Assembly (NCBI GenBank): GCA_022843095.1
Contig: JALHOH010000001.1
Coordinates: 600,001-632,000 of the forward strand
From: Candidatus Saccharimonadota bacterium
GTDB taxonomy: Bacteria; Patescibacteriota; Patescibacteriia; 2-12-FULL-60-25
DNA: 32,000 nt
Direction of reading: 5' to 3'
The notes below the pieces were generated by a model. That model saw only the letters and a list, made by a program, of their open reading frames with translations, ran no database searches and was not told where the DNA came from. The translations under genes and the position numbers were made by a program. Below are positions 1-29,399 of this stretch, one piece after another. Position 1 is the first letter of the stretch; every line of letters starts with the position of its first letter.

Positions 1-721
1 GGGGCGGCAGCGTTTCGCGACTATATCCTTCTTGGCGTGGATCAAAAACGATGCTCGCACGGCCAGAGGTTCCGAATAGTTTTCCATCGTTCGACCAATA
101 GTATGTTCCCATGGGGAGGGGAACGATGGAGGTGCTTCCCGGACGCATCCAGTATCCGTTTCCTGCGTTCGTTTCGATGAATGCGGAAGTGGTGTTTGGA
201 GACCACTGCACGCGCTTGATGGATTCAGCGGGAACGGGAATCGTGGTTGGGGTCGCCGTGTTTTGTGCAAAAACGTGTGTAGAGGTGCCGTGTGATTCGA
301 AAAACAGCAACGCTCCAGAATCCTGTGTGCTCACCCGATTAAATGCGCCGGTGCGTACACGGGATGGACGTTCGTTCTTCCACAGGCGTACGCGATCAAC
401 GAACGTAGCGTATTCGGCGCGTACATCGAGCACTTTTTCCCAGGGATGATACCCGTCACGAGCGATCAAAATGCGATGACTTCCCGGCGTAATACTGGTG
501 CGCGTTGTTGGGGTCAGTGCATCCAGACGCGTTCCATCCAGTGACACCGTTGCCCGGCGTGGGGTGGAATCCAGAATCAACGTCCCATGGTGTTCGATCG
601 TTGTTTTGTTGGGATTGTATCGGTAGCCGGAGGTATAAAAAATCAAAACGGGCGCCAGGGCAAAAAAGATGGCGACATACACCCAAGGCAGAATCCGACG
701 ATGGAACGGAGGGGCGTACAT
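1..721 (-). CDS. PEGA-domain membrane protein, N-terminal part (gene runs off the window start)
   Basis: Absent from the ORF track because it has no in-window stop. Hand translation of the minus strand from the ATG (plus-strand CAT 719-721) stays open down to base 2: MYAPPFHRRILPWVYVAIFFALAPVLIFYTSGYRYNPNKTTIEHHGTLILDSTPRRATVSLDGTRLDALTPTTRTSITPGSHRILIARDGYHPWEKVLDV... It has one N-terminal TM helix followed by a PEGA-like signature (TLILDSTP..A.V.LDG ... PGSHRILIARDGY). It supersedes ORFs 111..449(+) and 456..809(-). Confidence 0.7.
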   Translation of the reverse strand, partial: MYAPPFHRRILPWVYVAIFFALAPVLIFYTSGYRYNPNKTTIEHHGTLILDSTPRRATVSLDGTRLDALTPTTRTSITPGSHRILIARDGYHPWEKVLDVRAEYATFVDRVRLWKNERPSRVRTGAFNRVSTQDSGALLFFESHGTSTHVFAQNTATPTTIPVPAESIKRVQWSPNTTSAFIETNAGNGYWMRPGSTSIVPLPMGTYYWSNDGKLFGTSGRASIVFDPRQEGYSRETLPP

Positions 722-8506: not shown

Positions 8507-8529
8507 GACGCTTCGATACAGTGGGACGC

Positions 8530-11172
8530 ATGTCTACGGAGTTTACGATGGCAAAGGCGTATGAGCCGAGCGGTTTAGAGGAGCAACTCTACGCCGCGTG
8601 GGAAGCGTCCGGTGCATTTAACCCGGACCATCTTCCGGATCGCAATCAGCAAGGCGAGCCGTATTGCATCCTGATGCCGCCGCCGAATCGCACAGGGACG
8701 TTGCATATGGGGCATGCGACGATGCTTGCGATTGAGGATGTGCTCGCACGGTTTCATCGAATGCGAGGAAAAAAGGTGTTGTGGATTCCGGGGACGGACC
8801 ACGCGGCCATCGCGACGCAGGTGAAGGTGGAGCAGTTGCTTATCAAAGAGGGGATCAAAGACCCGCGCGCCGAATTGGGTCGGGAGAAGTTTTTGGAACG
8901 GGTGGTGGCGTTTGCGGAAGATTCTGCAAAGACGATTAACCACCAGGTGCGAAAGATGGGATCGTCCTGCGACTGGTCGCGTGAACGCTATACTTTTGAT
9001 GCAGAACGCAACGCCGCGGTGAATCGCGTGTTTGCCATGATGTTTGAAGACGGGATCATCGAGCGTGGATATCGCGTGGTGAATTGGGATCCGCAGTTTC
9101 AAACGACGCTGTCCGATGACGAGCTGGAAACGAAAGAAACCACGGCGCGTTTGTTGACCTTCAAATACGACGCGGATTTTCCTATTGCGATTTCGACGAC
9201 GCGTCCGGAGACGAAGTTTGGTGACACGGCTGTTGCGGTGCATCCGGACGATACGCGCTATCAAGCATTTGTTGGAAAAACCTTGGATGCGGTATTTTGC
9301 GGCAAAAAAATCCAGATTCGCGTGATCGCTGATCCGGCCGTTGATCCGGCATTTGGAACGGGGGCGCTTGGGGTCACTCCGGCGCACAGCATGATCGACG
9401 CGGAACTTGCAGAGCGTCACGGGTTGCCGACCATCCCGGTGATCGGGCGCGATGGTCGGTTGCTTCTGGGTGCAGTTCCGGAGGCATTTGTTGGGTGTAC
9501 CTTAAGCGATGCGCGAAAAATGATTGAAGAAGCATTGCAGGCGCAGGGTTTGCTTCAGGAGGTGAAAGAGGTCCCGCAAGCATTGCCGATTGCGCAGCGC
9601 GGGGGAGCAATCGTGGAACAGCTTCCCATGAAGCAGTGGTTTGTCCGCGCAAACAAGCCGTTTGCGTTGCGTCAGGACACGCTGGGAAAATGGAAGAAAG
9701 GGGATCAGGTGACGCTGAAGGAACTCATGCGCGAAGCCGTGGCCTCGAAGCAGACGTCCATCGTTCCAGACCGGTTTGAGAAGATTTATTTTCATTGGAT
9801 CGAGCATCTGCGCGATTGGTGCATTTCGCGCCAGATTTGGTTTGGGCACCGTATTCCGGTGTGGTATCGCGGGGACGAACTCCGGGTGTCCGAAGGATCT
9901 CCAGGGGAGGGATGGGAGCAGGATCCGGACACGCTCGACACGTGGTTTTCTTCTGGGATGTGGACGTTTTCGGCGTTGGGTTGGCCAAATGAAGAGACGT
10001 GGAACCGGCACCGCGCGTATCATCCGACGGCGGTTCTTGAAACCGGCTATGATATTTTGTTTTTCTGGGTTGCGCGTATGGTGCTCATGGCGACGTATGC
10101 CATTGGGGAGGTGCCGTTCAAGGATGTGTATCTGCACGGACTCGTCCGCGATGAGCAGGGACGCAAGATGTCCAAGTCATTGGGCAACGTGTTGGATCCG
10201 TTGGATCTCATCCCGAAATATGGGACAGATGCCGTACGGTTGTCGCTCATGGTGGGCACAACGCCGGGCATGGACGTCAAGTTATCCGAGCAAAAGATCG
10301 AGGGGTTCCGCAACTTTACGAATAAAGTGTGGAACATTGCTCGGTACATTTTGAGCACCACGAATGCGGACGCAGCGCCATCAACCACAACGACGCTTGC
10401 GGATCGTTGGTTGGATGCGCGTCTTGCGACGGTCACGCGTTCGGTGACGGAAAAATTGGAACGCTACCAATTTTCGGCGGCGGCAGAAGAGCTTCGTGAT
10501 TTTACCTGGAATGATTTGGCGGATTGGTACCTGGAAATCGCGAAAGTCGAAGGGGGGAAGGATGCGCGACTGCGCCGCACGTTGCAGACAGTGCTGGCAC
10601 TTTGGCATCCGTTTATGCCATTTGTGACCGAGGAGATTTGGAAGCAGGCAGCACCAGGATCACCCTTTTTGATGGTGACTCCGTGGCCGATGGCAGAAGG
10701 TCGGGCAGAGGAACCGGTGTTTACGGCGTTGCAATCGTTGGTGACGGAGATGCGTCGCTTGCGTGCGGAACAGCGGGTGGAGCCGTCACGCGCGATTGCA
10801 TTTTCGATCGTGTGTGAGTCAGAGCTTTGGTCGCAGTTGGAAGAGAATAGCGCATGGATCAAGCGATTGGTGCATGCAGAAGCCATCACTCGAACCAGCT
10901 CCTTGCCGGCGTCTTGGCCGGTTGCGACGCAGGGCGCGACATCCGTCGGATTCGATCCGGCGGGGGCGTTGGATTTGGCCCAGGAACGGGAAAAATGGAA
11001 GAAAGAGCTCGAAGCAACCGTCGGGTACATCGCCTCGTTAGAACAGAAGTTGGCGAATCAAGAATTTACGGCAAAAGCGCCGGAAAAAGTGATCCAAGGG
11101 ATGCGGGAGAAGCATGCGGATGCCGTCGCAAAACGGGATACGCTTCGCGCTCGGTTGGCAGAGGATTCCTGA
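8530..11172 (+). CDS. valS: valine--tRNA ligase
   Basis: Motifs are PPPNRTGTLHMGHA (HIGH) and KMSKSLGN (KMSKS), with a C-terminal coiled coil. Possible starts are GTG 8521, ATG 8530 and ATG 8548. Length is about 880 aa. Confidence 0.97.
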   Translation: MSTEFTMAKAYEPSGLEEQLYAAWEASGAFNPDHLPDRNQQGEPYCILMPPPNRTGTLHMGHATMLAIEDVLARFHRMRGKKVLWIPGTDHAAIATQVKVEQLLIKEGIKDPRAELGREKFLERVVAFAEDSAKTINHQVRKMGSSCDWSRERYTFDAERNAAVNRVFAMMFEDGIIERGYRVVNWDPQFQTTLSDDELETKETTARLLTFKYDADFPIAISTTRPETKFGDTAVAVHPDDTRYQAFVGKTLDAVFCGKKIQIRVIADPAVDPAFGTGALGVTPAHSMIDAELAERHGLPTIPVIGRDGRLLLGAVPEAFVGCTLSDARKMIEEALQAQGLLQEVKEVPQALPIAQRGGAIVEQLPMKQWFVRANKPFALRQDTLGKWKKGDQVTLKELMREAVASKQTSIVPDRFEKIYFHWIEHLRDWCISRQIWFGHRIPVWYRGDELRVSEGSPGEGWEQDPDTLDTWFSSGMWTFSALGWPNEETWNRHRAYHPTAVLETGYDILFFWVARMVLMATYAIGEVPFKDVYLHGLVRDEQGRKMSKSLGNVLDPLDLIPKYGTDAVRLSLMVGTTPGMDVKLSEQKIEGFRNFTNKVWNIARYILSTTNADAAPSTTTTLADRWLDARLATVTRSVTEKLERYQFSAAAEELRDFTWNDLADWYLEIAKVEGGKDARLRRTLQTVLALWHPFMPFVTEEIWKQAAPGSPFLMVTPWPMAEGRAEEPVFTALQSLVTEMRRLRAEQRVEPSRAIAFSIVCESELWSQLEENSAWIKRLVHAEAITRTSSLPASWPVATQGATSVGFDPAGALDLAQEREKWKKELEATVGYIASLEQKLANQEFTAKAPEKVIQGMREKHADAVAKRDTLRARLAEDS

Positions 11173-11197
11173 CTTCTGGAGTGACGCTTGACACAAG

Positions 11198-11236
11198 GGG
11201 AGACTTCCGCCATGATGGCGGGAGTCCTTTTTTTTC
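11198..11236 (+). terminator. rho-independent terminator after valS
   Basis: An imperfect hairpin, GGGAGACTTCCGCC-ATGAT-GGCGGGAGTCC, is followed by a T9 run (11228-11236). Confidence 0.6.
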
Positions 11237-11465
11237 GGGTGGTCGTTTAATCGGTAAGACACGAGATGCCTTTTTGCCTCGCCGTGATCCTGTCATACGT
11301 CATGCATCCACGGCGTATGTCCGATGAGTCCAAAAGCGTGTGGGTCTCCGACTCGCTATTGGCTCAGCGTCGATGCAGCGTCGACGTTCGTCTCCACCAC
11401 CACACCTCCTCCGGGAGGCGAGAAGGCTAGTACTCGAAATGCTGGTTCAAGCCCGGCCCACCCGA
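11236..11465 (+). ncRNA. structured RNA with tRNA-like ends split by about 165 nt (identity unresolved)
   Basis: A 7-bp acceptor-like stem pairs CGGGTGG (11236-42) with CCACCCG (11458-64), followed by A73. U8 is present. The D-arm GTTT-AATCGGTA-AGAC (11245-60) is almost identical to that of tRNA-Glu at 20780-95. There is an AAAT variable loop and a T-arm GCTGG-TTCAAGC-CCGGC (11441-57). In place of an anticodon arm, CGAG/AT/GCCTTTTTGCCTC (11262-80) pairs with GAGGCGAGAAGGC/TAGTA/CTCG (11415-36) as 4+13 bp, enclosing 134 nt. A dedicated terminator follows. Confidence 0.5.
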
Positions 11466-11474
11466 CTCTCTTTT

Positions 11475-11510
11475 CACCCCATGCATCCGCATGGGGTGTT
11501 TTCTTTTGGT
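11475..11510 (+). terminator. rho-independent terminator of the tRNA-like RNA
   Basis: A perfect 10-bp stem pairs CACCCCATGC (11475-84) with GCATGGGGTG (11489-98), with loop ATCC, followed by TTTTCTTTTGGTTT. Confidence 0.75.
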
Positions 11511-11539
11511 TTGCGAATAGACGTGCGCTTCGATAAGAT
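11511..11539 (+). promoter_or_regulatory. sigma70-like promoter for tyrS (would give a leaderless or near-leaderless mRNA)
   Basis: TTGCGA (11511-16), a 17-nt spacer and TAAGAT (11534-39) are present. ATG 11549 lies only 10 nt after the -10 box, and no SD is visible. Confidence 0.35.
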
Positions 11540-11548
11540 GCGGTCGAT

Positions 11549-12769
11549 ATGTCTGCTGTCTCTACCGACGCATCATTGATCGAACAGTTCTTGTCTCATG
11601 CGGTCGAGAATGTGTTTCCGTCCACCGAGGCGTTACGTGAACGCCTCTCTTCCGGCAAGCGGTTGCGCGTGTATTACGGGATCGATCCAACGGGCCCGAC
11701 CATCCATCTTGGTCACACGGTGCCCTTGCGCAAGCTTCGGATTTTGCAGCAGCTTGGCCACGAGGTGATTTTGCTGATCGGAGACTTTACAGCCATGATC
11801 GGCGATCCGACGGGAAAATCAGATACGCGCAAACAATTGACCAAAGAACAGGTCGCGGAAAACATGGCGCTCTATCGAACGCAGGCTTCGACCTTTTTGG
11901 ATTTTGATGGACCGAATCCCGCGCATTTTCGGTTGAACAGCGAATGGTTGGGAAAAATGACGTTTTCAGATGTGATCGCGCTCGCCTCCAAATTTACAGT
12001 GCAGCAGATGCTTGAGCGCGACATGTTTGAAAAGCGGTTAGAAGAGGGGACGCCGATCCATGTCCACGAATTCTTTTATCCGCTCATGCAGGGATACGAT
12101 TCCGTGGCGTTGGATGTGGATTTGGAACTCTGTGGAAACGATCAAACGTTTAACGCGTTGGCAGGGCGCACATTGCAACGCATCGAGCGCAATAAAGAGA
12201 AGGCCGTTCTTGCAACCAAGTTGCTCACCGACGCAACCGGGAAGAAGATGGGCAAGAGTGAGGGAAACATGGTTGCGATGACCGATGCTCCGGAGGATAT
12301 GTTTGGGAAGGTTATGAGCTGGCCGGATGCCATGATCGTACCCTCTTTTGAGATTGCGACGGATGCATCGCCCGAGCAGGTAGCACGTGTGAAGCAGGCG
12401 ATGGCAGACGGAGAAAATCCCATGTTGTTTAAGCGCGAATTGGCGCGTCAGATTGTGACGATGCTCGCGAGTGCGGAGGCGGCTGTTTTGGCGGAAGCGC
12501 ATTTTGATCGTGTCCATAAAGACCATGCCGCGCCTGAAGACATTCGCGAGGTGCGGATGGACGTGGCGGAGATCGCATTGGTGGATGCGCTCGTGCAAGC
12601 CGGACTCGTGGATTCAAAGTCAGAGGCGCGTCGTCAGATTGAACAAGGGGGTGTCAAAGTGGATGACACGGTAGTGACCGACGTCAAAGCGCAGATTCGA
12701 GTAGATGCGGGGGGAACGACGCTCCAGAAGGGAAAACGACACTTTGCGAAACTCATCCGAAACGCCTAA
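11549..12769 (+). CDS. tyrS: tyrosine--tRNA ligase
   Basis: Motifs are GIDPTGPTIHLGH (HIGH) and KMGKS (KMSKS), with a C-terminal S4-like domain (SEARRQIEQGGVKVD). Confidence 0.95.
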   Translation: MSAVSTDASLIEQFLSHAVENVFPSTEALRERLSSGKRLRVYYGIDPTGPTIHLGHTVPLRKLRILQQLGHEVILLIGDFTAMIGDPTGKSDTRKQLTKEQVAENMALYRTQASTFLDFDGPNPAHFRLNSEWLGKMTFSDVIALASKFTVQQMLERDMFEKRLEEGTPIHVHEFFYPLMQGYDSVALDVDLELCGNDQTFNALAGRTLQRIERNKEKAVLATKLLTDATGKKMGKSEGNMVAMTDAPEDMFGKVMSWPDAMIVPSFEIATDASPEQVARVKQAMADGENPMLFKRELARQIVTMLASAEAAVLAEAHFDRVHKDHAAPEDIREVRMDVAEIALVDALVQAGLVDSKSEARRQIEQGGVKVDDTVVTDVKAQIRVDAGGTTLQKGKRHFAKLIRNA

Positions 12770-20770: not shown

Positions 20771-20845
20771 GGCCTCATCGTTTAATGGCTAGGACAACCC
20801 CCTCTCACGGGGTAAATAGGGGTTCGATTCCCCTTGGGGCTGCCA
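20771..20845 (+). tRNA. tRNA-Glu (anticodon CUC), CCA encoded
   Basis: Hand-folded cloverleaf: GGCCTCA-TC-GTTT-AATGGCTA-GGAC-A-ACCCC-CTCTCAC-GGGGT-AAAT-AGGGG-TTCGATT-CCCCT-TGGGGCT-G-CCA. The anticodon loop is CU-CUC-AC. There is a G1:U72 wobble. Confidence 0.9.
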
Positions 20846-22516
20846 TGTTGAAGACCGCGCTGTTTGCCCCTCGGCATCGGCGCGGTCTTCTTCTATTTTC
20901 AGCGGAAAACGCGCACTCGTGTGTGGGTTCGATCCCCGCATCGTCGACGGTGCCAGCCCTGTTGAAGTCCTGCCCCTCGAAACACGCACAATGGCCTTCT
21001 GTTTCGAAAGAATCTCCGTCGAAAACGTGGGGTTCGATCCTTCGCCCCCGAGCAAGAGAAGTGGTTCCACCAATGAGACCGTGACTCCGCGTCGCCGGAT
21101 CTCGATCCGAGCGCAGGTCTCACCAACAAGCCGCCGTCGCTCCTCGGGGGGTGCGTGCCGGAACGCGAGCGAGATCTGGGCGGCGAGCTGCACGAACCCC
21201 CGCACCTTCTCCGCAGTGCGTTGCTCGTGCGCCTCGGGCGCTCGGAGCGTTCGCTCCTGGTCGAGTCGCTCGGCGACGAGCGCTTGTTTGCGCGTGAGGT
21301 AGTCGGATTCGTCCAGTACCCCACGAACGCAGAGCGTTGTGAGGCGTTCGAGCTCGAGCGAGATCTCCTCGATCCGGCGGCGGGCTGCCGCGAGGGTAGC
21401 CCGCTTCGCCTCGGCCTCGGCGCGCTCAGTGCCGTCGAGTTGTGCGAGCGCCCATTCCTCGAAACCGGGCGGTAGTTCGACGTCCCGAAAGGCAGCCTCG
21501 ATCGCGTGGTCGATCCAGCGTTCTTCGAGGTGCGGGCGCTCGCAAACGCCCAGCTCGTTCTTCCGGCGCGAACAGCGATAGTACACGTACTCACTCCCGA
21601 ACCGGTTCACGTGGCGCTCGGAGGTTGTTCCTCGCCCACATTCACTGCAGCGAAGCAGGCCACGGTATGTGAAGCGGTAGCGCTTCGGGCGGGGAGCGTG
21701 GCGAGTCTTCAGAATCGCCTGCACGCGTGCGAATTCGGCTGCAGTCACGACTGGCACATGCGCGCCTTCGTACACCTCGTCGCCGTGGCGGAGCACTCCC
21801 GAATAGAACGGGTTGTGCAGCATGTGGTGGATGCTCACGAGCGGGAGCGGTCCTGCGGGATGGCGACGCGTGCCCCGTGTGCGCAGCCCGAGCGTTTTGT
21901 CAGCGTAGATGGTCGCATCATGGAGACTCATCGTCCCAGAGAGGAAACGACGAAACAGCGCTCGGACGAGCGGAAACCGTTCGGGATCGGGGATCGTTGC
22001 CCCCGCACCACGGCCTCGTGCAGCGGGAGACTCCTTGAGGTAGCCGAGCGGAACAATGCCCGTCCAGCGTCCCGACTGGAGTACCGCGCGGTTTCCTCGC
22101 TTCACGTTGTCGGAAAGATCATCGACGTACTTCTTGGACATCCCGAAGTCGAGGTTCAGCATGAACTTGTCGTCTCCAGTGTTCCGGAACGTGCGACCCG
22201 GGGTTAGAATCTGCCCGATCTTGCGTCGGTCGAGCGCGTCGATGACCTGGCCGCCGTCGAGCGCATTCCGCGCCAGGCGGTCAGGCTTCCAGCACAGAAT
22301 CCCTGCGACGGGCCGCCGCTCGAGCGCAGCCATCATGGCGCCGAACACGGGGCGTCCCGGGGTACGGGCGCTCTGCGCTTCCTCGAAGGTGCGCGAGATC
22401 GTGATCCCGTTTCGGGCAGCGAGTTCGCGGAGTTCGGCGATCTGCGCCGAGATCGACGCGATCTGGCGGTCATCTTCCTCGGTGGACTTGCGTACGTAGA
22501 GAAACCATGTGGACAT
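20789..22516 (-). CDS. large serine recombinase (integrase)
   Basis: The N-terminal resolvase domain is MSTWFLYVRKSTEEDDRQIASISAQ (catalytic Ser in RKST), followed by a recombinase domain (GRWTGIVPLGY). The zinc ribbon is CSECGRGTTSERHVNRFGSEYVYYRCSRRKNELGVC, followed by a coiled coil. The recognisable protein ends near aa 490 (about nt 21045). The remaining ~85 codons run through the T-arm repeats and 57 nt of tRNA-Glu before the first stop. Confidence 0.9.
   Translation of the reverse strand: MSTWFLYVRKSTEEDDRQIASISAQIAELRELAARNGITISRTFEEAQSARTPGRPVFGAMMAALERRPVAGILCWKPDRLARNALDGGQVIDALDRRKIGQILTPGRTFRNTGDDKFMLNLDFGMSKKYVDDLSDNVKRGNRAVLQSGRWTGIVPLGYLKESPAARGRGAGATIPDPERFPLVRALFRRFLSGTMSLHDATIYADKTLGLRTRGTRRHPAGPLPLVSIHHMLHNPFYSGVLRHGDEVYEGAHVPVVTAAEFARVQAILKTRHAPRPKRYRFTYRGLLRCSECGRGTTSERHVNRFGSEYVYYRCSRRKNELGVCERPHLEERWIDHAIEAAFRDVELPPGFEEWALAQLDGTERAEAEAKRATLAAARRRIEEISLELERLTTLCVRGVLDESDYLTRKQALVAERLDQERTLRAPEAHEQRTAEKVRGFVQLAAQISLAFRHAPPEERRRLVGETCARIEIRRRGVTVSLVEPLLLLGGEGSNPTFSTEILSKQKAIVRVSRGRTSTGLAPSTMRGSNPHTSARFPLKIEEDRADAEGQTARSSTWQPQGESNPYLPRERGLS
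20851..20900 (+). terminator. rho-independent terminator after tRNA-Glu
   Basis: A 10-bp stem pairs AAGACCGCGC (20851-60) with GCGCGGTCTT (20880-89), has a 19-nt loop and is followed by CTTCTATTTTC. Confidence 0.6.
20905..20968 (+). repeat. degenerate tRNA 3'-half-like repeat (unit 2)
   Basis: GAAAACG...GTGGGTTCGATCCCCGC...GGTGCCAGCCCTGTTGAAGTCC parallels tRNA-Glu plus its flank (GTAAATAGGGGTTCGATTCCCC...GCTGCCATGTTGAAGACC). No matching 5' half or cloverleaf is present. Confidence 0.5.
21021..21072 (+). repeat. degenerate tRNA 3'-half-like repeat (unit 3)
   Basis: GAAAACGTGGGGTTCGATCC repeats the variable-loop/T-arm pattern of units 1 and 2 at about 105-nt spacing. The segment ends in GGTTCCACCA and sits at the GC-content transition. 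Confidence 0.45.
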
Positions 22517-28130: not shown

Positions 28131-29399
28131 ATGCTCCTTCCCTTCGCGCGCATCGATCACCGGCTCGGACGAGGCCGGATCGTTGCGATTCGCGCGACGG
28201 ACGCAGCCCGGCACATCCACATCATCGGGCAGACGGGTGCCGGTAAGTCGGTGCTGATCGAAAGGCTCTTCGTCGCAGAGATGCGCGCGGGACATGGCGT
28301 CGGGCTCCTCGATCCGCACGGAGACCTGGTCGAACGACTGCTCGACTTCGTTCCGCGCGAACGCACGAACGATGTCGTGCTCGTGGACGGCAGCGAGCGA
28401 GAGGCGCCCGTCGGACTGAACCCGCTCGACATGCACGACGCACCAGCACCCGAGCTCGTTGTCTCCGGCGTCCTCTCGGTGTTCAAGAAGGTGTACGGCG
28501 ACTCCTGGGGACCGCGGCTCGAACACCTCCTGCGGAACGCGCTCTTCGCGCTCGCGGACGTGCGTGATGCAACGCTGCTCGGCGTGCTGCGCATGTTGGT
28601 CGAGGAGCGCTTTCGCGCGCGTGTGCTGCGCTCGGTGCAGAACCCCATCGTGCGATTCTTCTGGGAGAGGGAGTACCCGTCGTATCCGCCTGCGTTTCGC
28701 GCAGAGATGGCGAGCCCCGTGCAGAACAAGATCGCCGCTGCACTCACGCACCCGTTGCTCCGCGGAATCGTGGGACAGGTCCGCACGACGGTCTCCGCGC
28801 GAGAGATCATGGACGAAGGACGCGTGCTGCTCGCGAGCCTCGCGAGGGGACGGATGGGCGAGGACGCGTCGATGTTCGTGGGCGCGCTCCTACTCGGACA
28901 GTTTCAGCTCGCGGCGTATGCGCGTGCGGATGAGGCCCCGCGCGAGCGCCGTCCCTTCACGCTCTACGTCGACGAGTTCCCGTCTTTCGCGACGGAGAGC
29001 TTCGGGGATCTCTTGGTGGAGGCGCGGAAGTTTGGCCTCGCACTCGTGCTCGCGCACCAGCACATGGCGCAACTCTCTCCCGCGCTCGGCCGGGCGATAC
29101 TCGGGAACGCAGGGACAACCATTGTGTTTCGCGTGGGGCCCGAGGACGCTGCGCAGCTCGCGCCGTTGTATGCGCCGGAGCTTCGCGCAGAGGACCTCTC
29201 GAAGCTCGCGCGCCACCAGATCGCGCTTCGCCTCGCTGTGAACGGTACGACCTCCGCGCCATTCACAGCGGAGACGTTGCCGCCCTTCGAGGCCCGCGAA
29301 CGCACAAAACAGAGCGCGCTCATCCAGCGCATCTCACGCGAGCGATACGGCACGCATCGCGCGCGCCGCGACGCCCAACTCCGCGCGCAGTTGGAGTGA
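28131..29399 (+). CDS. soluble FtsK/HerA-superfamily P-loop ATPase (TraD/VirD4 coupling-protein-like or DUF87/HerA-like)
   Basis: Walker A is HIIGQTGAGKS, followed by LLDPHGD. Walker B is FTLYVDEF. The region EARKFGLALVLAHQHMAQLSPALGRAILGNAGTTIVFRVGPEDA is also present. No TM segments are seen. It diverges from the NDT/TIR-like gene across a 62-bp spacer. Confidence 0.8.
   Translation: MLLPFARIDHRLGRGRIVAIRATDAARHIHIIGQTGAGKSVLIERLFVAEMRAGHGVGLLDPHGDLVERLLDFVPRERTNDVVLVDGSEREAPVGLNPLDMHDAPAPELVVSGVLSVFKKVYGDSWGPRLEHLLRNALFALADVRDATLLGVLRMLVEERFRARVLRSVQNPIVRFFWEREYPSYPPAFRAEMASPVQNKIAAALTHPLLRGIVGQVRTTVSAREIMDEGRVLLASLARGRMGEDASMFVGALLLGQFQLAAYARADEAPRERRPFTLYVDEFPSFATESFGDLLVEARKFGLALVLAHQHMAQLSPALGRAILGNAGTTIVFRVGPEDAAQLAPLYAPELRAEDLSKLARHQIALRLAVNGTTSAPFTAETLPPFEARERTKQSALIQRISRERYGTHRARRDAQLRAQLE

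Follow-up and report, generated by a model that had tools for sequence, protein, structure and literature searches.

Introduction

The engineered tRNA scaffold of Ponchon and Dardel is made by swapping the anticodon arm of a tRNA for an RNA of interest, and tRNA enzymes process the resulting chimera, which is shielded from nucleases (PMC3753655). The Y RNAs of the YrlA and Yrn1 families (RF02553, RF01053) are non-coding and contain a tRNA-like module of D- and T-arms; in M. smegmatis YrlA it has a 7-bp acceptor, is cleaved by RNase P and receives CCA (PMC4201824). In tmRNA (the RF00023 clan), tRNA-like halves are joined via a long helix and a large structured middle, and bacterial tRNA genes with a group I intron (RF00028) carry a large insert at the anticodon loop of a tRNA-shaped gene. 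B. cereus tRNA-Other and mascRNA are tRNA-shaped RNAs of tRNA size that are processed like tRNAs and do not decode. We know of no such pseudo-tRNA with a 170-nt domain replacing the anticodon arm.

Here we describe an element in the spacer between valS and tyrS of the window (the whole stretch of DNA that was analysed, 32,000 nt) and compare it with these systems. Like the tRNA scaffold, it retains the acceptor, T- and D-arms, and a hairpin-closed RNA replaces the anticodon stem-loop (PMC3753655); unlike that laboratory design, it is natural and chromosomal and has its own promoter and terminator, and we only infer its processing. The acceptor of YrlA is closed into a stem-loop, and the Ro-binding stem is built from the RNA ends (PMC4201824), whereas the ends of the element form the acceptor. 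No Y RNA model of Rfam (YrlA/Yrn1) matched in the window, and no rsr gene was found among the window genes. The element shares the overall layout of tmRNA, but it has neither G3:U70 nor a tag frame, its D-stem is complete, and it matches no tmRNA model. It also resembles the tRNA genes with group I introns in the position of its large insert; it differs from them in that it matches no covariance model, its insert falls short of their size, excision would probably not restore a canonical tRNA, and the corresponding insert of a related locus (L167) is only 34-42 nt long. Like tRNA-Other and mascRNA, it is tRNA-shaped and is read here as non-decoding, and its 170-nt domain sets it apart from them; the mascRNA model of Rfam gave only a weak sub-threshold match, to a tRNA-like sequence of another related locus (L012b).

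A tRNA body with a long helix and a structured insert at the anticodon position

The preliminary description of this DNA had proposed a tRNA-like RNA whose halves are parted by a long helix and a structured insert. This core reading is supported, and its coordinates were verified (Table 1). Every piece of the tRNA body that it had listed (acceptor, D-arm, T-arm, invariant nucleotides and A73) was found in place, and its 4 + 13 bp helix was confirmed base for base together with the insert. The acceptor strands (CGGGTGG at 11236-42 and CCACCCG at 11458-64) form a perfect 7-bp stem followed by A73 at position 11465, T8 is present, and the D-arm (11245-60) contains A14, G18G19 and A21. The element thus has the 7-bp acceptor, D-arm, T-arm and invariant nucleotides of the tRNA family (RF00005), and it does not have the 5-bp anticodon stem with a 7-nt loop and U33 of that family. 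The anticodon position is occupied by a 4-bp helix (CGAG at 11262-65 with CTCG at 11433-36), which is separated by a 2 x 5 internal loop (AT / TAGTA) from a 13-bp helix (11268-80 with 11415-27) that includes two G.U pairs and encloses exactly 134 nt. The A15-U48 combination of the element agrees with the covarying Levitt pair 15-48. The likeness of the D-arm and the AAAT variable loop to the tRNA-Glu of the window, also pointed out before, was borne out; that tRNA-Glu does encode CCA, and an encoded 3' CCA is absent from the element, where A73 is followed by CTC.

Table 1. Features of the element and its surroundings in the window, and tRNA-shaped sequences at related loci
Feature	Positions	Strand	Remarks
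Promoter of the element, sigma-70 type	11188-11216	+	TTGACA-17-CATGAT; 10/12 matches; end 20 nt before C1
valS intrinsic terminator	11197-11235	+	hairpin + T8, found by scan; ATGATGGCGGG..TC.TTTT kept in L167
Acceptor and D half of the tRNA body	11236-11261	+	C1-G7, T8 C9, D-arm GTTT/AATCGGTA/AGAC, A26
5' strands of the 4-bp and 13-bp helices	11262-11280	+	CGAG and GCCTTTTTGCCTC, AT between
Insert	11281-11414	+	134 nt; predicted further closing pairs, hairpins A, B and C, unpaired CU-rich stretch
Hairpin A of the insert	11294-11319	+	folding prediction
Hairpin B of the insert	11326-11365	+	irregular; folding prediction
Hairpin C of the insert	11366-11388	+	9 bp; folding prediction
CU-rich stretch of the insert	11389-11412	+	CGUCUCCACCACCACACCUCCUCC; predicted unpaired, 22-24 nt
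3' strand of the 13-bp helix to variable loop	11415-11440	+	GAGGCGAGAAGGC, junction TAGTA, 4-bp helix CTCG, variable loop AAAT
T-arm, acceptor 3' strand and discriminator	11441-11465	+	GCTGG-TTCAAGC-CCGGC (11441-57), CCACCCG, A73
Intrinsic terminator of the element	11475-11507	+	found by scan; sole part covered by partial Rfam matches
tyrS promoter	11511-11539	+	TTGCGA-17-TAAGAT; outside the element, 9 nt before the tyrS ATG at 11549
L001 tRNA-like			8-nt loop CUUAGAAA; Rfam tRNA 57.5 bits
L008 tRNA-like			6-7-bp anticodon stem, 2-4-nt loop
L012a tRNA-like			loop ACGGCGU, C33
L012b tRNA-like			11-nt loop
L163 tRNA-like			6-nt loop UGUAUG; C1:G72, A73; preceded by ~290-nt structured region
L165a tRNA-like			plausible tRNA-Pro(UGG)
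L165b tRNA-like			73-nt 'Tyr(GUA)'; G33, C73, no long variable arm
L166 tRNA-like			13-nt loop
L167 tRNA-like			C1:G72, A73; 9-bp arm + 34-nt insert; minimum-energy fold is a cloverleaf
L171a, L171b tRNA-likes			loops UGAA and UUCAA

Folding of the 230-nt RNA gave -97 kcal/mol (z = -4.5), and enforcing the cloverleaf on the element cost just 2.5 kcal/mol. With 11268-11427 removed in silico, what is left of the body was recognised as a tRNA by ARAGORN at default settings. We then searched 1.14 Mb on both strands with a strict descriptor, which combined a 7-bp acceptor with a T-arm and a D-arm (A14 and GG required) and permitted overall lengths of 66-520 nt. The results showed 23 matches, compared with a mean of 0.03 over 30 shuffles, and a chance origin of the tRNA body is therefore excluded. 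Only two matches were longer than 78 nt, namely the element itself (229 nt) and L167 (110 nt), and both lie on the plus strand of the valS-tyrS spacer.

The 134-nt insert is predicted to form three hairpins

The insert folds with z = -4.56 relative to shuffled sequence, and it is predicted to lengthen the 13-bp helix and then to form three hairpins (A to C, Table 1). A hairpin had been proposed earlier at 11368-87, and the folding indeed predicts one there, at 11366-88. Searches with nhmmer and blastn over 164-171 loci and the window found no alignable homologue of the element, of the insert or of whole spacers, the tyrS promoter excepted, so the fold given here is a purely thermodynamic one. 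Genome and metagenome collections were scanned with TyrRS as the anchor, and a protein search and 12 contigs were added; across all of these the best relatives reached just 70% TyrRS identity.

One short motif of the insert, (C)ACCUCCUC(N0-3)GGGA, which resembles the 16S 3' end, recurs among spacer RNAs that are otherwise unalignable. It was found at 11403-11418 of the window, at 3806-3822 of L001 and at 1235-1250 of L020, with a variant at about 166-181 of L008. In L001 and L008 the motif forms the tip of a hairpin that is backed by four compensatory pairs, and three of the six plus-strand matches to ACCTCCTC in 1.15 Mb fall in spacers. We regard this recurrence across the compared sequences as a lead only. 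The L020 spacer contains four CCUCC-type motifs and has no tRNA-like sequence. An anti-Shine-Dalgarno or sponge role of the CU-rich (CCUCC) strand was considered and not adopted, since the motif was picked post hoc and such a role is weakened by the fact that most window genes have no matching ribosome-binding site.

Promoter and terminator signals between valS and tyrS

The element lies between valS (8521-11172) on the left and tyrS (11549-12769), followed by argS, on the right. The scans recovered both signals that had been noted previously, the TTGACA box (11188-93) and the terminator of the element (11475-11507), and the promoter scan placed CATGAT at 17-nt spacing from the former. The -10 box of this promoter sits in the loop of the valS terminator hairpin, so that the 3' arm and U-run of that terminator would make up a 5' leader of about 13 nt in the transcript of the element.

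A second promoter was found downstream of the element terminator. The form TTGCNN-17-TAAGAT stands 8-11 nt before the tyrS ATG, with TAAGAT invariant and TTGC conserved in the window, L163, L165, L167 and L171, and it was also found in L164, a locus without the element. No ribosome-binding site was present upstream of the tyrS ATG (window 11511-11551, and L163, L164, L165, L167 and L171). The position of the promoter 8-11 nt before the ATG and the lack of a ribosome-binding site suggest that the tyrS mRNA is leaderless. Since tyrS keeps its own conserved promoter downstream of the element terminator, the element, judged by these signals, is not a tyrS leader. A similar CTTCGATA box was seen just 5' of the valS start, and most window genes have no Shine-Dalgarno sequence.

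The closest TyrRS relatives are Patescibacteria (CPR), near Candidatus Uhrbacteria, with a best identity of 70%. The valS-tyrS order is widespread in CPR, and the spacer measures 20 nt at its shortest and exceeds 700 nt at its longest. Small ORFs of about 110-150 aa that are unrelated to the element occupy it in some lineages (L004 3590-3945, L010 3539-3897 and L014 3458-3918); an 'FWTR' stretch is common to those of L004 and L010, which may be related. From these comparisons, the spacer appears to be an insertion hot spot. Small ORFs that overlap the element itself matched no Pfam family.

tRNA-shaped genes at the same spacer in related genomes

Analysis of the related loci showed tRNA-shaped genes in the valS-tyrS spacer of at least nine related lineages (L001, L008, L012 with two, L163, L165 with two, L166, L167 and L171 with two). 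Their anticodon loops have 4, 5, 6, 8, 11 or 13 nt, or 7 nt with C33 or G33, or are replaced by a long insert, and only that of L165a looks canonical (Table 1). Judged across these loci, the element is one extreme member of a locus group of tRNA-shaped genes in related CPR genomes with non-canonical anticodon arms. ARAGORN returned 'tRNA-???' five times in the first 164 loci, and all five calls lie within the valS-tyrS spacer. Most true tRNAs in these loci encode CCA, with three exceptions, whereas 10 of the 11 spacer tRNA-likes outside the window do not; L167 alone encodes it.

L167 is the nearest structural relative of the element. Its TTGACA-17-AATGAT stands 21 nt before C1 and is followed by ATGATGGCGGG..TC.TTTT as in the window, and between the two loci there are compensatory changes in the acceptor, D and T stems. 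L165 has exactly the same D- and T-loops as L167. The element is absent from L164 (one of the two closest relatives, with a spacer of 32 nt), from L169 and from many others, and is therefore dispensable. The acceptor of L171b contains a mismatch, which hints at decay in some members.

The L001, L008 and L012 loci allowed a comparison at closer range. Their flanks are at least 95% identical, non-coding terminators and promoters included, whereas the cassette between the valS terminator and the tyrS-proximal terminator (L001 3640-4040, L008 1-411, L012 3607-4040) is only about 70% identical or wholly replaced, and the cassettes still fold. This pattern in the three aligned loci does not suggest neutral decay but a structured RNA subject to exchange or diversifying selection. 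A second tRNA-like sequence is present in L012, and only its 5' part is retained in L008.

Interrupted tRNA-likes occur at more than one locus, because one further example stands elsewhere. In L155, a distant AT-rich CPR genome, a tRNA-like of 186 nt (195-380, minus strand) with an extended anticodon stem of about 10 bp and a rod of about 100 nt lies outside the valS-tyrS spacer, upstream of an rmuC-like gene.

Several smaller features of these loci were observed. A multi-branched structured region of about 290 nt with a 12-bp closing stem and no Rfam match lies directly 5' of the L163 tRNA-like (2540-2835). GUA, the tyrosine anticodon, is present in the abnormal loops of the tRNA-likes nearest to tyrS in L163 (2836-2908, UGUAUG) and L165 (1306-1378, CGGUAAA); the long variable arm typical of bacterial tRNA-Tyr is missing from both, and the triplet could be due to chance or to TyrRS mimicry. 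The 8-nt anticodon loop of L001 (3730-3745) carries UAG. Yeast mitochondrial tRNA-Thr(UAG) also has an 8-nt anticodon loop, and this likeness is probably a coincidence.

Compensatory changes in the tRNA body

We aligned the 12 tRNA-like bodies and evaluated the 16 pairs of the acceptor, D and T stems. The results showed that these stems are 99.5% paired, with changes on both sides in 13 of the 16 pairs, a result reached by none of 500 shuffles; the count of covarying pairs may be inflated, as the 12 bodies may stem from different tRNAs. When the pairing partner was slid by 1-3 columns as a control, 39-49% of positions were paired. The tertiary pair 15-48 was G-C seven times and A-U four times and was never broken, which one of 500 shuffles also reached. 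Two comparisons appear less exposed to the caveat of different tRNAs, judging from the sequences compared: that of the window with L167, and that among L001, L008 and L012. A comparative alignment of the valS-tyrS spacer, which the preliminary description had called for, thus gave compensatory changes in the body stems, but for the insert it offered no alignable homologue.

Searches for known RNA families

Default ARAGORN and Rfam detected only the tRNA-Glu in the window and missed the element. The Rfam searches covered the window, L001, L012 and L163 and used gathering thresholds as well as E <= 10. In the region of the element the searches at E <= 10 returned only terminator look-alikes, leaving the insert and the flanking structured domains unmatched, and in L001, L012 and L163 they returned tRNA matches for the normal-size relatives and terminator look-alikes only. 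The Rfam and ARAGORN runs, which had been proposed to assign the region to a known family, gave no confident assignment, at E <= 10 and with relaxed ARAGORN settings too. The relaxed search did produce a 'tRNA-Phe(gaa)' with a 154-nt intron; this is a forced fit that needs a mismatched stem and a 9-nt variable loop, and we rejected it.

Doubts about a tmRNA and about a group I intron had been voiced at the outset, and both were upheld. The pair check gave G3:C70 instead of G3:U70 together with a full D-stem, six-frame translation gave no tag ORF with a stop, and no match was found by ARAGORN (default, relaxed and tmRNA mode) or by the Rfam tmRNA clan at E <= 10. For RF00028, which comprises the P3-P9 catalytic core, there was likewise no match at E <= 10. 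The T-box leader (RF00230, with stem I specifier, T-box sequence and antiterminator) did not match at E <= 10 either; a T-box acts where the downstream gene depends on read-through from the leader, and here a conserved tyrS promoter is predicted after the terminator. Inspection of the putative splice sites found no bulge-helix-bulge, the junction being the 2 x 5 internal loop between the 4-bp and 13-bp helices. The earlier suggestion that the arms of the 13-bp helix could be terminal inverted repeats found no support. The repeats match at 11 of 13 positions as in a MITE, but no target-site duplication and no second copy were found (window and 1.1 Mb of related loci), and both mismatches are G.U, fitting an RNA helix.

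A candidate non-decoding tRNA-shaped RNA and its alternatives

On these data we give an even chance to the reading that the element is transcribed on its own into a tRNA-shaped RNA of about 230 nt that does not decode, a natural "tRNA scaffold". Going by the sequence signals, transcription would start from TTGACA-17-CATGAT, nested in the valS terminator, and stop at the terminator of the element. The intact 7-bp acceptor, T-arm and D/T elbow would make the transcript a substrate of RNase P, cut before C1 with U at position -1, and the intact body would also permit trimming of the 3' end behind A73. This would yield an L-shaped RNA with a rod of about 170 nt and its three-hairpin domain in place of the anticodon stem-loop. 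The tRNA body may then define the ends of the RNA, protect it from nucleases and serve tRNA-binding proteins as a handle, and the lineage-specific arm, including the predicted unpaired CU-rich strand of 22-24 nt, could be the working part or effector.

A decaying relic is a real rival of this scaffold reading, and we consider it possible though rather unlikely. The element would be a former tRNA gene, perhaps tRNA-Pro-like (C1:G72, A73), that lost its anticodon loop to an insertion and is now functionless. Such a past would fit the plausible tRNA-Pro(UGG) of L165 at the same locus, whose D- and T-loops are shared with L167, and a highly plastic, recombination-prone spacer that ranges from 20 nt to over 700 nt and elsewhere holds unrelated small ORFs; the missing element in L164 and L169, the acceptor mismatch of L171b and an insert without homologue point the same way. 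However, the damage is confined to the anticodon arm in about 10 independent sequences, with the body stems and the 15-48 pair kept intact via compensatory changes. Promoter and terminator are kept in the window and in L167, CCA is gone while every stem stays, and the L001/L008/L012 cassette has diverged far beyond its neutral flanks yet folds. A small mobile element with 13-bp terminal inverted repeats that inserted into a tRNA-like gene is very improbable: the helix arms do match at 11 of 13 positions, but besides the missing target-site duplication and further copies and the G.U-compatible mismatches, the corresponding structural position is expanded in L167 and L155 by unrelated sequence.

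The case for a tRNA gene with an unknown or minimal self-splicing intron starts from the fact that deleting exactly 11268-11427 leaves a 2 + 5 = 7-nt loop, AUUAGUA, with U33, and that this shortened sequence is called a tRNA by ARAGORN at default settings. With the junction placed between U33 and U34, a 71-nt tRNA with anticodon UAG would result; a U stands directly before the putative 5' splice site, the L001 loop CUUAGAA(A) carries the same UAG triplet, and the 22-nt 'unpaired' strand could form pseudoknots invisible to minimum-energy folding. We nevertheless hold this to be improbable. No group I or group II model of Rfam matches even at E <= 10, and the 160 nt to be removed are below the size of known tRNA group I introns, which measure about 200 nt or more. 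The final base of the insert is C, not G, and a bulge-helix-bulge is absent by inspection. The spliced product would have U37, an A.A pair atop the stem and no long variable arm, so it would not be a Leu tRNA. In addition, the orthologous insert of L167 is just 34-42 nt long and no excision there yields a loop with U33, and CCA is not encoded, unlike in most true tRNAs here. A bolder form is a shade less probable still, namely that the insert represents a novel type of tRNA intron in bacteria, distinct from both group I and bulge-helix-bulge introns. Its removal at the foot of the 13-bp helix, between U33 and U34, would leave a 71-nt class-I tRNA(UAG), and the odd-looped relatives would be stages of intron gain and loss. 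Equally improbable as the self-splicing intron is a cis-acting or TyrRS-binding regulator of tyrS, in which a tRNA mimic before a terminator would act as attenuator or synthetase decoy. The element does lie directly upstream of tyrS with a terminator between, and GUA occurs in the tyrS-proximal tRNA-like loops of two relatives (L163 UGUAUG, L165b CGGUAAA). But tyrS has its own conserved promoter, also where the element is absent, and no ribosome-binding site; because that promoter lies 8-11 nt before the ATG, a read-through transcript would not be a translated mRNA. A T-box match is absent, and the window element has neither a GUA loop nor a long variable arm. To a divergent or minimal tmRNA-like ribosome-rescue RNA we assign next to no probability, although its topology is the same, with tRNA-like halves joined by a long irregular helix and a structured middle: G3:C70, the full D-stem, the missing tag-like peptide frame with a stop and the missing ARAGORN and Rfam matches argue against it, and the L167 insert is too short for coding.

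If expressed, the scaffold-like RNA would be the natural equivalent of the engineered scaffold and would show the tRNA body at work in bacteria as a processing and stability chassis for grafted unrelated RNA domains. A group of tRNA look-alikes that do not decode would thereby also be defined in CPR, where RNA biology has hardly been explored. A description of such RNAs was not found in the literature on CPR; within the searched literature the group is so far undescribed, and it is new within the broad class of tRNA-like non-coding RNAs. Standard finders of tRNAs and RNA families miss such genes or mislabel them as 'tRNA-???', 'tRNA-Ala', 'tRNA-SeC' or 'tRNA-Tyr'.

Other features of the window

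The viral contigs contained no exact match to either tRNA half of the element, so a reading of the element as a phage attachment site is without evidence. Elsewhere in the window, the 3' end of the tRNA-Glu (20771-20845) is abutted and overlapped by the ORF of a large serine recombinase (20789-22516, minus strand), and a TrwB-like coupling protein (28131-29399) is followed by several ORFs without Pfam matches. From its gene content, this region beside the tRNA-Glu resembles a mobile element that has integrated there. Downstream of the tRNA-Glu, within the recombinase ORF, two orphan T-arm-like motifs (GGGTTCGATCC with flanking stems) were observed at 20923-20946 and 21028-21050; they could be remnants of attachment sites or chance matches.
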